DNA of 64,000 bases. Source: a virus. The position numbers were made by a program, and so were the translations under genes. The notes under the pieces were generated by a model. The model saw only the letters and a list, made by a program, of their open reading frames with translations, was not told the DNA's origin and did not search any database. The DNA is taken from positions 61,528-125,527 of the IMG/VR virus record IMGVR_UViG_3300033069_001718. One strand, written 5' to 3'. Each line of letters starts with the position of its first letter. Within the stretch, counting starts at the first letter, position 1. This document shows positions 40,089-44,551 of the stretch, piece by piece.

Positions 40089-40117
40089 TTGACCTTTTAT
40101 AAAAGTAGGGTATAATA
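40089..40117 (+). promoter_or_regulatory. sigma70-like promoter (TTGACC-17-ATAATA), leaderless
   Basis: ttgacc ttttataaaagtagggt ataata, with the ATG at 40123. Confidence 0.5.
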
Positions 40118-40122
40118 TATCA

Positions 40123-42330
40123 ATGACTCGAATAATTTACACTTACGACACCGAAACCTATTTCAGTAAGGGGTGGCTTAAAGTGGGGGATACCGGTCGA
40201 GATGTTATTACCCGTATCGAAGAACAGGTAACTGCGGCCGTTCCGGAGCAATTACGAGTCCGTTCCACTCATGAAATCGACGAAAAATACCGAGATTATC
40301 AAATTCACAACATTCTCGAAAATCGATTGGGTAAACGGAGGATTTACAAACCGGCCACAAAAGTAATCATTGATGAGGCGAAAGCAGCCGGAATCCCAAT
40401 TAAACAAGGAAAAGTTGCGACTGAGTGGTTTGTCTGTACTCCAGCCGATGTAGCTTCCTCAGTCAATATCCTAAATCACGGAGTAGCAAGGCCGCATAGT
40501 TGGTCAATGCGACCGGAGCAGAATGAATTTGTCACTAAGGCATATAGCTATTTTCAAGCCGGTGGTAATCGCTTTCTGGGTAATTGTAAATGTCGGTTTG
40601 GTAAAACGTTTGCCACCTACAATCTAATGAAAAAGTTGGGGGCGAAGACGGTTCTGATTCTCACCTTTAAACCCGCGGTGGGTGGTGAATGGGAATCCAA
40701 TCTCAACGAACATATCTTTTTTGACGATTATGTTTTTCACCACGCATTAAATTTTGATAAGAATAATCCAATTAAATTGACAGGCAAAAACGTGGATTTA
40801 TTTGCCTCATTTCAAGATATTCTTGGCAAAAATTGTAATGGTAATCCGAAACAAAAATGGAATTACGTTTTGGAATTCATAAAGAAAAATGGTATTGATC
40901 TATTGGTTATTGATGAGGCGCATTTCGGAGCGGACAAAAAGCGGGCGCAGGAACTAATCGACAGTCTCAATTACAAGTGGCGACTCGATCTGAGCGGAAC
41001 TCCGCTTGATTTGTTGATGAGTGGGCAATATACCGATACCAATACTTATAATTTTTCGTATGTTGATGAACGTAAGTTACGTGCGGCTGATATCAAGACC
41101 AATGGCGACAAGAGTTGTTATTACTGGCTGCCCGAATTAAATCTATATCGCCTGGAATTGGGTCAACAGGTCATCAATGATAGTGATGCTTATTCTCCGG
41201 AAGAAGGTCTGCGCCTGAACAAGTTTTTTGCTTCAGACGATGGAAAGGAATTTATCAATAAATCCGCACTTATTAAGTGGTTGGATTTGCTCGCCGCCTG
41301 CGACTTCAAAATTTGGGCCTCACCTTTTAATGACAATACCTTGGCGGGAAAATTAGATCATATATTCTGGATTCTACCGGATGTAAACAGTTGTCGTGCG
41401 ATGTTGCGTTTACTCCGCTCGCACCGTTATTTTAAAGAATTTCGAATTGTCCCAGCGTTTGACGATAATGATGGGGAGGGGCGGGACACCGTCCGTTTGG
41501 TCAAGGACGCAATTCGGGACCACGCCAAGACGATTACGTTGTCCTGTGGGAAACTTAACACCGGCGTCACGATCAAGGAATGGTCGGCGGTCTTTTATCT
41601 CTCTGACACAGTGGCTCCGGAGACGTATTGGCAGACCATTTTCCGTTGTCAATCAGAGTGTCCAGAACTGAATAAACAGGAGTGTTTTGTATTCGACTTC
41701 AATCCTAACCGCACGTTGAAAATGATTTATGAATACTGTGAGACATTAGCGAAGAAAGGTCAATCTACTCAAGCTGCGATTCGTGAGTTTTTAGACACTG
41801 TAAAGGTTTTGTCCTATGACTCCAATCGGTTAGTCAAGATGAGTAATAGCGACTTGGAGAAAATCATCGAAAGTACGATTGATGTCGCAAAAGCCGCGCG
41901 GCGGTTTGAATCGGTCACGCAAGTCGCCGGAGGGAATATCAGCGCAGAGACACTCAATTCCACTGCGCACTTAACTCCAGCCAGGGGTGGCAAGGTGGGG
42001 GATATTGAATTTCCAAAAAGCCCATTGAAATCCGGAAAGGTATTTGTAAAACCAGATGGTAATAAAAATGGAAAACAAGTTGATGCGACCAAAGTGGTTA
42101 TTCTCCGGTTGGTAACGATCCTAAAAGCCTTACCAACCTTCCTGTTTTTATCCCAACAAGCAGAAGAATCGATTGATGATATCATCAATACCTCGGAAAC
42201 GGATTTGTTTGAAACTATTACAACTATTAAAGTAAGTGATTTGAAACGAATGGTTGAAGAAGGTTCCATTATCAAAGAACGGGTTGATCGCTCCATTCAA
42301 GCTCTGACATTAGCTCAAAAACGAAAATAA
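40123..42330 (+). CDS. SF2 helicase (type III Res/SNF2-like) with an N-terminal T5orf172/GIY-YIG-like domain
   Basis: N-terminus IIYTYDTETYFSKGWLKVGDTGRDVITRIEE (T5orf172-like). Walker A GNCKCRFGKTF, DEAH box LLVIDEAHF, and motif III LDLSGTPL. Confidence 0.7.
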   Translation: MTRIIYTYDTETYFSKGWLKVGDTGRDVITRIEEQVTAAVPEQLRVRSTHEIDEKYRDYQIHNILENRLGKRRIYKPATKVIIDEAKAAGIPIKQGKVATEWFVCTPADVASSVNILNHGVARPHSWSMRPEQNEFVTKAYSYFQAGGNRFLGNCKCRFGKTFATYNLMKKLGAKTVLILTFKPAVGGEWESNLNEHIFFDDYVFHHALNFDKNNPIKLTGKNVDLFASFQDILGKNCNGNPKQKWNYVLEFIKKNGIDLLVIDEAHFGADKKRAQELIDSLNYKWRLDLSGTPLDLLMSGQYTDTNTYNFSYVDERKLRAADIKTNGDKSCYYWLPELNLYRLELGQQVINDSDAYSPEEGLRLNKFFASDDGKEFINKSALIKWLDLLAACDFKIWASPFNDNTLAGKLDHIFWILPDVNSCRAMLRLLRSHRYFKEFRIVPAFDDNDGEGRDTVRLVKDAIRDHAKTITLSCGKLNTGVTIKEWSAVFYLSDTVAPETYWQTIFRCQSECPELNKQECFVFDFNPNRTLKMIYEYCETLAKKGQSTQAAIREFLDTVKVLSYDSNRLVKMSNSDLEKIIESTIDVAKAARRFESVTQVAGGNISAETLNSTAHLTPARGGKVGDIEFPKSPLKSGKVFVKPDGNKNGKQVDATKVVILRLVTILKALPTFLFLSQQAEESIDDIINTSETDLFETITTIKVSDLKRMVEEGSIIKERVDRSIQALTLAQKRK

Positions 42331-43567: not shown

Positions 43568-44040
43568 TCGTAGTCTCAATTATAATATCTATATTATCCC
43601 TGATAGTATCTCTAACATCCCTATGTATAGGATTATACAACAGATTAACGATCTCTAATAATTTAAAAATAAAATCATATTTATCTCAAATAAAAACTCA
43701 TTTTTGTGAAATTGATAATATAAACTATGGTAGGATTGTAATGAAAGATTGCCATTGCGATTCTCTTAAAGATTTTGACAGACTGCGTTGCGTCGGTTCA
43801 CAAATTTATTCGGAATCATCTAAAGAAGTGCGAGCATACCTAGACGATCTAACATCAGAATTAAATGATTTTTGTAATAAAATGAGAAATACCACAGGGG
43901 CATTCCAATGGGATTGTAGCAAAATTAAAAAACTCGTCTGTGATATAGAAAAAGAAATTTTAATGGAAGATGAAATATCCGATGGTATCCGTTCCGGAAT
44001 AAAAAAACTCATTAAAAATCTTTACTATGACGGAAAATAA
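43564..44040 (+). CDS. AT-rich hypothetical protein with an N-terminal transmembrane helix (158 aa)
   Basis: MIVVSIIISILSLIVSLTSLCIGLY. Strongly AT-rich compared with its neighbours. Confidence 0.4.
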   Translation: MIVVSIIISILSLIVSLTSLCIGLYNRLTISNNLKIKSYLSQIKTHFCEIDNINYGRIVMKDCHCDSLKDFDRLRCVGSQIYSESSKEVRAYLDDLTSELNDFCNKMRNTTGAFQWDCSKIKKLVCDIEKEILMEDEISDGIRSGIKKLIKNLYYDGK

Positions 44041-44551
44041 ACGGAAACACACCCCCGAAAAGATCAAGCAGAACGGTGAGGTATTCACACCAGAACCTCT
44101 AGTCAATCAAATGCTCGATAAACTCCCGCAAGGAGAGCTATTAGATCCTCTGAAAATAATCGGTGATATAAGTGGTTGCGGTAATGGCAATTTCCTATTC
44201 AACATTTTGGAACGGAGAATAGCTGCTGGTATTTCGCATAAAAATGCTCTCCAGACATTATATGGCGTGGACATAGACGAAACCAATGTCTTTGAGTGTA
44301 AACAACGCCTTGCGTTAGGTAGTCGGGATACGAATATCTGGAAAATACTAGATCGCAACATCATTTGTGCGGATGCGCTGAACAAGAGTCATCCCGGTTG
44401 GAGAAAAGTTGGTTATATGTGGGACCCGTTGGGTAATCCCGCAGAACATTTCAAACTCGAAAATATAAAAGACCTGCCATTTGTCAAACGCACCAGACCG
44501 AAGAAAAAGCCGGTGGTGGTTGAAGACTCTCCATTTTTAACTAAAGCTTGA
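44027..44551 (+). CDS. truncated or degenerate N6-adenine methyltransferase-like protein (N-terminal SAM-binding part only)
   Basis: GEVFTPEPLVNQM...LDPLKIIGDISGCGNGNFLF (motifs X and I), but no NPPY motif. Confidence 0.4.
   Translation: MTENKRKHTPEKIKQNGEVFTPEPLVNQMLDKLPQGELLDPLKIIGDISGCGNGNFLFNILERRIAAGISHKNALQTLYGVDIDETNVFECKQRLALGSRDTNIWKILDRNIICADALNKSHPGWRKVGYMWDPLGNPAEHFKLENIKDLPFVKRTRPKKKPVVVEDSPFLTKA

Follow-up and report, generated by a model that had tools for sequence, protein, structure and literature searches.

What does a phage gain from a helicase-like protein, an adenine methyltransferase, and what looks like half of a second methyltransferase, all encoded side by side? This question is raised by four open reading frames (ORFs) in a stretch of 64,000 nucleotides (nt) of viral DNA (IMG/VR record IMGVR_UViG_3300033069_001718, positions 61,528 to 125,527), which we call the window. 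The ORFs, of 735, 411, 158, and 174 amino acids (aa), all lie on the plus strand, as listed in a preliminary description that saw in them a possible DarB-like antirestriction module or type III-like unit. That observation was partly confirmed, being real with one wrong detail, and its interpretation was partly supported: the module and the fusion of a T5orf172 domain to the helicase were right, while DarB and the label "truncated" for the 174-aa protein were wrong. We consider it probable, though well short of certain, that this region forms a single transcription unit in a large virulent phage and encodes a complete ATP-dependent restriction-modification (RM)-like system of a widespread three-part family. 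The domain content of the locus, its intact catalytic motifs, the linkage of its genes, and their conservation across phages and bacteria are directly established.

The 735-aa protein matched the Pfam family ResIII (E value, 1.4e-9) and has more than 4448 homologues. Its motifs RFGKT, DEAH, and SGTP, typical of superfamily 2 (SF2) helicases and already recognized as Walker A GKT, DEAH, and SGTP, all fell in invariant columns of an alignment of 24 phage and bacterial homologues. Invariant positions comprised R158, G160, and K161 in motif I; D264, E265, and H267 in motif II; S291 to P294 in motif III; T472, C475, and T480 in motif V; and Q504, F507, and R508 in motif VI. The proposed N-terminal T5orf172/GIY-YIG-like domain also held up, through a marginal Pfam match, a match of residues 5 to 273 to the REBASE-derived PADLOC profile REase_MTase_IIG (PDLC03626, 1359 positions; E value, 2e-31), and GIY-YIG-type residues that were invariant in all 24 aligned sequences, namely Y6 and Y8 (IYTY), K20 and G22 (LKVG), R31, Q35, and E101-W102. 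Homologues were matched by Pfam T5orf172 and MUG113 and carry the PGAP label "GIY-YIG nuclease family protein." As judged by these residues, the N-terminal domain is assigned to the GIY-YIG superfamily (T5orf172), and the whole protein may be regarded as a putative nuclease-motor. Past residue 532, no conserved D/E...K set of a C-terminal PD-(D/E)xK motif was found in the alignment, since F696 alone is invariant there; such a Res nuclease motif had been suggested as worth looking for.

For the 735-aa protein, a profile search of the PDB gave a weak sequence match to the Type I subunit HsdR (3h1t; E value, 6e-6) and a single-sequence PDB search gave no match, NCBIfam held no model for the helicase in either its phage or its bacterial version, and PADLOC returned no named defense system, only generic REBASE-derived profiles. 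At two phage loci (L182:3666-5956 and L184:3730-5999), the helicase homologue is present as two ORFs (331 plus 416 aa and 313 plus 435 aa, respectively), each of which matches one half of the helicase profile.

The 411-aa protein was correctly described as an N6-adenine methyltransferase, since it matched Eco57I (E value, 3e-13) and N6_Mtase and carries both FVDPTCKSG and GNPPY. An AlphaFold2 (AF2) model had a predicted local distance difference test (pLDDT) score of 90 and a predicted template modeling score (pTM) of 0.86. In a Foldseek search, the best PDB match of this model was CamA, over the full length (E value, 7e-22; template modeling [TM] score, 0.65), followed by a Vibrio vulnificus methyltransferase, PglX/BrxX of BREX, M.BseCI, and M.TaqI. 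These matches place the protein among the gamma-class adenine methyltransferases, with a domain for DNA recognition at its C terminus, and its motifs follow the gamma-class order: X, I to III, IV to VIII, and then the target-recognition domain (TRD). Conservation was uneven along the chain. GNPPY and its surroundings were invariant among homologues, and conservation reached 90% or more in 22 of the 95 columns of the catalytic half and in 27 of the 181 columns of the TRD, against 5 of 108 in the N-terminal half, the least conserved stretch of the protein. In that half, motif I has K (DPTCKSG) where many enzymes have G or A, and YGYAIS replaces the motif II acid, which most family members carry as YGxE. 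The N-terminal half was absent or degenerate in the homologous proteins of loci L017, L016, L018, L107, and L182.

The 174-aa protein contains motif X (GEVFTP), motif I (DISGCGNGNFL), motif II (YGVDID), and motif III (ADAL), followed by a conserved HxGW..VGYxW segment and then a variable tail, and motif IV (NPPY) is not present in it. The AF2 model was confident (pLDDT above 90) for approximately residues 21 to 110, with a disordered tail; the modeled core consists only of helix X, strand 1, a helix, strand 2, a helix, and strand 3, and among solved structures it comes closest to the N-terminal parts of CamA, M.BseCI, and HsdM. The preliminary description had correctly noted that NPPY is missing, but the "truncated" METHYLTRANSFERASE claim did not stand: short proteins of this kind form a family of their own, with conserved synteny, which makes the wording "truncated fragment" misleading and the protein a conserved partner rather than a remnant. 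All 58 of its homologues measured 118 to 187 aa, and of the 150 best cluster representatives from an exhaustive profile search, 140 did not exceed 280 aa (median, 177 aa). S-adenosylmethionine (AdoMet) motifs were near-invariant in the family. The alignments of the two methyltransferase proteins were equally divergent, each with a mean column identity of 47%, yet conservation of 90% or more was seen in 31 of 106 columns of the small-subunit core, versus the 5 of 108 in the N-terminal half of the large protein.

In some relatives, the small protein is the only source of motifs I to III. Large proteins that lack the N-terminal half begin with MKFD..GNPPY (L017, 278 aa; L182, 273 aa; L107, 310 and 329 aa), a form that accounted for 10 of the 120 closest homologues of the large methyltransferase, and the small gene adjoined in each of the three NPPY-first loci examined (L017, L107, and L182). 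The gene order in L182 is methyltransferase, small gene, and then catalytic half, and some phages have two or three alternative catalytic halves per small subunit. Natural fusions that run from the catalytic half through the TRD to the small domain, as the phage genes do, were found in Aeromonas phage 65 (p65301) and in P0303, P0353, and P0411; p65301 has FDYVIMNPPY at its start and motifs X, I, II, and III at its end. Together, the conservation of the small protein, the missing halves, the several halves per small gene, and the fusions suggest that it is a working AdoMet-binding module.

Two loci have particular layouts. L107 (L107:2616-8488) encodes a fused T5orf172-helicase-methyltransferase, two catalytic/TRD halves (310 and 329 aa), and one small gene, which suggests alternative specificities sharing one AdoMet-binding subunit. 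In Vibrio phage phi-ST2 (L020:2301-4459), one 552-aa protein joins a LEM-3-like GIY-YIG domain to an NPPY catalytic half, and a small subunit of 167 aa comes next, among genes of 7-deazaguanine metabolism (QueC/QueD/GTP cyclohydrolase).

The three proteins travel together well beyond this phage. In a scan of bacteria and archaea limited to one genome per species, relatives of the helicase were found in 592 of the 600 candidate stretches listed, so that the family is present in at least 592 species. Eighty bacterial loci were fetched, and the 50 whose flanks each reached 2.6 kb or more were counted for synteny; 46 of these 50 contained the trio in the order small gene, methyltransferase, helicase. 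The bacterial genes overlap and encode proteins of 196 to 227, 527 to 549, and 846 aa, respectively. They adjoin Mrr, ParDE, Fic, or HigBA genes, a defense-island-like setting, and also occur on plasmids. Among phage-type loci, the small gene lay downstream of the methyltransferase gene in all 14 examined. Close phage relatives encode helicase, methyltransferase, and small proteins of 807, 377, and 157 aa (L005) and of 743, 445, and 183 aa (L009), and helicase and methyltransferase are fused into a 1147-aa protein (P0003, 54% identical, and L007), followed by a small gene that encodes 158 aa in L007. The trio or variants of it also occur in the gut phage NatCom_35866 and in cyanophage MA01, where the arrangement is the same. 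Overall, the helicase family was found in cultured cyanophages and a gut phage, and the small protein or domain was found in Aeromonas and Vibrio phages as well. When the helicase and the methyltransferase were compared by tblastn with 50,697 phage records, 13 and 11 records matched, respectively, all from gut phages, cyanophages, and Lak or other uncultured phages; operons on bacterial chromosomes and plasmids are the closest relatives.

Current resources catalog this family piecemeal. The REBASE-derived PADLOC profile PDLC03626 (1359 aa) covers the nuclease-helicase and the catalytic half, and the family is also entered under a separate one, MTase_II (PDLC03375). PGAP annotates the members of the trio separately as "N-6 DNA methylase," [quoted passage not shown] and "DEAD/DEAH box helicase" or "GIY-YIG nuclease family protein." A literature search restricted to open-access papers returned no description of the trio or of such a split N6-adenine methyltransferase. 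With a T5orf172-SF2 helicase, an adjacent Eco57I-type methyltransferase with a TRD, and an adjacent small protein holding motifs X and I to III only, the window locus is a full member of this unnamed family. That the helicase partner is always of the T5orf172 type was an idea that we rejected on finding an unrelated ResIII/Helicase_C protein, with an N terminus that may be Mrr-like, at that place in L018. In the two related phage contigs L018 (L018:2960-7438) and L016 (L016:4333-7483), the methyltransferase and small pair follows this different protein, which is of 736 aa; in L016 just 242 aa of it remain, and the final 122 aa share 80% identity with the L018 helicase.

Given this organization, the RM-like system that we favor can be pictured as follows, with the enzymatic activities, complex formation, target site, restriction, and biological role being what we infer. 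It would consist of three parts: a nuclease-motor protein, in which an SF2 helicase-like ATPase bears a nuclease of the T5orf172/GIY-YIG type at its N terminus; a gamma-class N6-adenine methyltransferase that resembles CamA and Eco57I and has a TRD of its own; and a small partner that corresponds to the AdoMet-binding half only (motifs X and I to III, strands 1 to 3). The large and small methyltransferase proteins would jointly methylate adenine in a specific, probably asymmetric site and so mark the phage DNA. On unmethylated DNA, the methyltransferase complex would instead recruit the nuclease-motor, which would move along the DNA using ATP and cut it with the GIY-YIG-type domain. The logic would be that of Type ISP enzymes, with a different nuclease and separate subunits. 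A lytic phage would likely use such a system to attack unmethylated DNA, either the host chromosome or that of co-infecting phages, while methylation protects its own.

For the small protein, the linkage data indicate an obligate partner of the methyltransferase, which could provide the cofactor site in trans, act as a noncatalytic dimer partner, or serve as an AdoMet sensor for the nuclease-motor. We put forward as a tentative idea, about which we are somewhat more doubtful than confident, that it is a trans-acting AdoMet module that completes one or more catalytic/TRD subunits, that the enzyme is a naturally split, modular N6-adenine methyltransferase, and that the whole unit represents a distinct GIY-YIG-type ATP-dependent RM class, a weapon of virulent phages against host or rival DNA.

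Several observations weigh against these views. The large protein was modeled by AF2 as a complete fold that includes its own strands 1 to 3, so the small protein cannot simply fill a missing half in the source phage. Both P0212 and P0197 retain the motif II acid; motif I is of the GxG type in P0212, which also has GEVFTP, and is Gly-rich in P0197, which lacks motif X. Each nevertheless has a small partner. A rule that the small gene occurs only alongside a degenerate large N-terminal half was accordingly rejected, since such canonical-looking proteins also keep it. The Pfam match to T5orf172 in the 735-aa protein is marginal (E value, 7.7e-4; 20.4 bits against a cutoff of 20). Some phages possess the methyltransferase part only, namely L016, with its helicase remnant, and Aeromonas phage 65, with its lone fused methyltransferase. 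Finally, the nearest studied analogue, dnmA-yeeB-yeeC of Bacillus subtilis, gave no restriction or phage protection (PMC9973331).

The last two points make protective methylation alone a serious alternative, although we rate it as rather unlikely. The genes would then serve antirestriction, and the helicase-nuclease would have another purpose, such as recombination or the breakdown of host DNA, or would be inactive. That L016 and Aeromonas phage 65 keep methyltransferase genes by themselves fits this explanation, as do the orphan methyltransferases common in large phages (PMC7824862) and the B. subtilis analogue, which acts as an orphan methyltransferase (PMC9973331). However, the phage copies keep the nuclease and ATPase motifs without variation, a single promoter precedes the closely spaced genes, fusions of helicase and methyltransferase exist, and the same trio stands in bacterial neighborhoods of the defense type, all of which weigh against it.

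A Type III RM system with reversed gene order is a very improbable explanation of the locus. Type III enzymes require ATP and two inversely oriented unmethylated sites for cleavage. The ResIII match, the separate methyltransferase and helicase-nuclease subunits, and, by analogy, a recognition sequence that is likely asymmetric and read on a single strand would all agree with this type. Yet the methyltransferase is of the gamma class, like CamA and M.TaqI, and not a beta-class Mod; the predicted nuclease is N-terminal and of the GIY-YIG type, with no conserved PD-(D/E)xK motif at the C terminus; neither PADLOC nor NCBIfam yielded a match to a Type III model; and the gene order is wrong for Type III, as the preliminary description itself had remarked. 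We conclude that the unit is not a member of Type III, and the earlier type III-like label is not upheld.

The other earlier suggestion, a protein like DarB of phage P1, is hardly credible. DarB is packaged in the virion and injected, and a DarB-like protein borne by the virion would shield the incoming DNA. Both loci combine an N6-adenine methyltransferase with an SF2 helicase in a phage, and weak matches to the large phage families phrog_1685 (E value, 3e-5) and phrog_62 (E value, 1e-5) could be taken in the same sense. However, DarB is a large fusion of methyltransferase and then helicase, whereas the window has the opposite order in separate, far smaller proteins and includes an intact nuclease-type domain. 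The closest relatives are the bacterial operons, in defense-island-like neighborhoods, and none of the 13 and 11 records matched by tblastn was named P1, the inclusion of a P1 record among the 50,697 not having been separately confirmed. Just as poor is the notion that the 174-aa gene is a decaying duplicate, a pseudogene fragment without function: motif IV is missing and the model of the large protein shows a complete fold as it is, but the gene is one of a family devoted to short proteins whose motifs hardly vary, keeps its place beside the methyltransferase gene in 46 of 50 bacterial loci and 14 of 14 phage-type ones, and is the sole source of motifs I to III where the large protein starts at NPPY.

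The layout of the locus is consistent with joint expression (Table 1). At position 40089, where the preliminary description had the module begin, stands the −35 hexamer of a promoter-like site. This site and the one at 44548 are the joint top two matches within positions 39000 to 45500, and because they bracket the four genes, these look like one transcription unit. The −10 hexamer of the upstream site ends 6 nt before the ATG of the 735-aa ORF, whose transcript would thus be leaderless or nearly so. The one wrong detail mentioned above concerned the coupling of helicase and methyltransferase by ATGA: their junction reads TAA-T-ATG, and the ATGA overlap sits between the methyltransferase gene and the membrane ORF. 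The membrane ORF and the small gene share a 14-nt overlap. An identical locus was present on contigs of two independent samples and is therefore not an assembly artifact.

Table 1. Positions, in the window, of the ORFs, predicted domains, and promoter-like sites discussed in the text
Feature	Position	Strand	Basis
Promoter-like site, sigma-70 type, TTGACC-16 nt-TATAAT	40089..40116	+	11/12 match
Nuclease-motor (T5orf172-helicase) ORF, 735 aa	40123-42330	+	ORF listing
T5orf172 domain (GIY-YIG superfamily), ~aa 1-120, predicted endonuclease	40123..40482	+	Pfam T5orf172, aa 4-113
SF2 helicase-like ATPase core, ~aa 128-535	40504..41727	+	ResIII match, aa 128-294
C-terminal region of helicase protein, ~aa 536-735, poorly conserved, no nuclease motif	41728..42330	+	24-sequence alignment
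Large methyltransferase ORF, 411 aa	42332-43567	+	ORF listing
Own N-terminal half of large methyltransferase (motif X EIYTP; motif I variant DPTCKSG; YGYAIS, no motif II acid)	42413..42736	+	Column conservation
Catalytic half, motifs IV to VIII, including FDVIVGNPPY	42737..43021	+	Invariant F138, D139, N144, P146
Predicted TRD (DNA binding)	43022..43567	+	Structural alignment to CamA over whole chain
Membrane ORF, 158 aa	43564-44040	+	ORF listing
Small-subunit ORF, 174 aa	44027-44551	+	ORF listing
Small subunit, AdoMet-binding half of gamma-class methyltransferase, then variable tail	44027..44551	+	Motifs, AF2, co-occurrence
Downstream promoter-like site, TTGACA-16 nt-GATAAT, marking the downstream edge of the unit	44548..44575	+	11/12 match
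Promoter-then-ATG sites	14853-14892, 21342-21381, 40089-40125, 44548-44587, 49599-49636, 54705-54746 (also 837, 28809)	+	Promoter scan

The 158-aa membrane ORF is not a component of the system. As the preliminary description had it, this is an AT-rich insertion encoding a transmembrane protein: its GC content is 29.6%, versus 43% for the window, and the product has eight Cys residues and an N-terminal hydrophobic helix (hydropathy, 2.64). Family searches with it gave no match. ORFs occupy the same junction in L018 (210 aa), L016 (260 aa), and L181 (203 aa), and we rejected the possibility that these and the window ORF form a conserved fourth component, as no similarity among them was better than an E value of 0.05. 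By composition and lack of conservation, the membrane ORF is best described as a later, variable low-GC insertion. Elsewhere, one ORF recurs at two places: it follows the small gene as an ORF of about 90 aa in L009 (L009:10108-10380) and forms the N terminus of the 203-aa ORF between the methyltransferase and small genes in L181 (L181:7160-7771). With similarity judged by eye, it looks like a mobile accessory gene.

The neighborhood consists of phage genes, including an rIIA-like gene, a T4_Y16D-family gene, and an NAD-salvage block; none of the 50,697 phage records contained near-identical DNA or the genome of a closely related phage. The best matches of the rIIA-like protein (positions 22484-24940) are in Streptomyces and Arthrobacter phages, at 28 to 30% identity. 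The NAD-salvage or NAD-related block (32555-36151) comprises NUDIX, NAMPT, a nucleoside deoxyribosyltransferase-like gene, and NADAR. At positions 36654-39212, an 852-aa protein has shoulder and vault-repeat domains of the major vault protein, and its sole phage matches are in three huge uncultured phages (462 to 735 kb; 41 to 46% identity). In at least 6 of 24 strong plus-strand sigma-70-like matches in the window, the ATG of an ORF of at least 40 aa stands 6 to 11 nt past the −10 hexamer. This spacing leaves no room for a Shine-Dalgarno sequence, and leaderless mRNAs appear to be a regular feature of early-type genes in the source phage.

The main interest of the locus lies in the conserved half-methyltransferase subunit and in the presence of the system in virulent phages, which raises the idea that such phages may use methylation-guided nucleases offensively. 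Annotation splits the system into three unrelated-looking genes despite its wide spread. If the small protein is an integral subunit, both the annotation and the expression of such loci would change, and cloning the "methyltransferase" by itself may give no activity. The family may also represent an adenine methyltransferase that occurs in nature as two pieces, along with a counterpart of the Type ISP enzymes that uses a GIY-YIG domain.

Among known systems, the closest studied kind is DnmA(YeeA)-YeeB-YeeC of B. subtilis and Vibrio crassostreae, a conserved cluster in defense islands that combines an N6-adenine methyltransferase, an SF2 helicase, and T5orf172, and whose Vibrio homologues affect phage sensitivity (PMC9973331). 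It unites the same three functions as the window locus. It differs in that these are three proteins and, by the described architecture, T5orf172 is at the C terminus of YeeC rather than at the N terminus of the helicase. Its methyltransferase is MmeI-like and complete, with no small half described, whereas that of the window is CamA/Eco57I-like; MmeI_Mtase was a weak match of the bacterial small proteins only.

With CamA, M.TaqI, M.BseCI, and PglX/BrxX, the likeness lies in the methyltransferase itself: the large subunit matches all of them, and the small protein matches the N-terminal parts of CamA, HsdM, and M.BseCI. However, CamA, M.TaqI, and PglX are single chains with one AdoMet-binding half, whereas the family of the window always encodes a second, stand-alone half. 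Split or permuted DNA methyltransferases such as M.AquI and M.EcoHK31I alpha/beta are C5-cytosine enzymes, and in the beta class the motifs follow the order IV to VIII, TRD, X, I to III. This order is reproduced by the NPPY-first large proteins together with the small protein, and by the fused protein of Aeromonas phage 65, but here the predicted modification is of N6-adenine.

The nearest likeness in layout is to the Type ISP enzymes LlaGI and LlaBIII, which cleave DNA by a translocation-collision mechanism. Their order of nuclease, SF2 helicase-like ATPase, gamma-class N6-adenine methyltransferase, and TRD is the order of the phage genes, and the fused relatives (P0003, 1147 aa; PADLOC PDLC03626, 1359 aa) share it too; the succession of an SF2 ATPase and a gamma-class methyltransferase with a TRD that defines this type is present in the window. 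Sequence searches gave no significant match to either LlaBIII or LlaGI, and by fold there was a weak match for the small protein only. The Type ISP nuclease is an N-terminal Mrr domain of the PD-(D/E)xK family in a single polypeptide, whereas the window has a T5orf172/GIY-YIG-type domain, separate proteins, and an extra half-methyltransferase subunit. With its T5orf172 domain at the N terminus and no PD-(D/E)xK at the C terminus, the unit thus resembles Type ISP in layout, with a different nuclease and split subunits. In the strict sense it is not a member, as its nuclease family differs and it is not a single chain. Relatives of this very kind, uncharacterized and combining helicase subunits with GIY-YIG nucleases, were mentioned by the authors who studied the Type ISP enzymes (PMC3553950).

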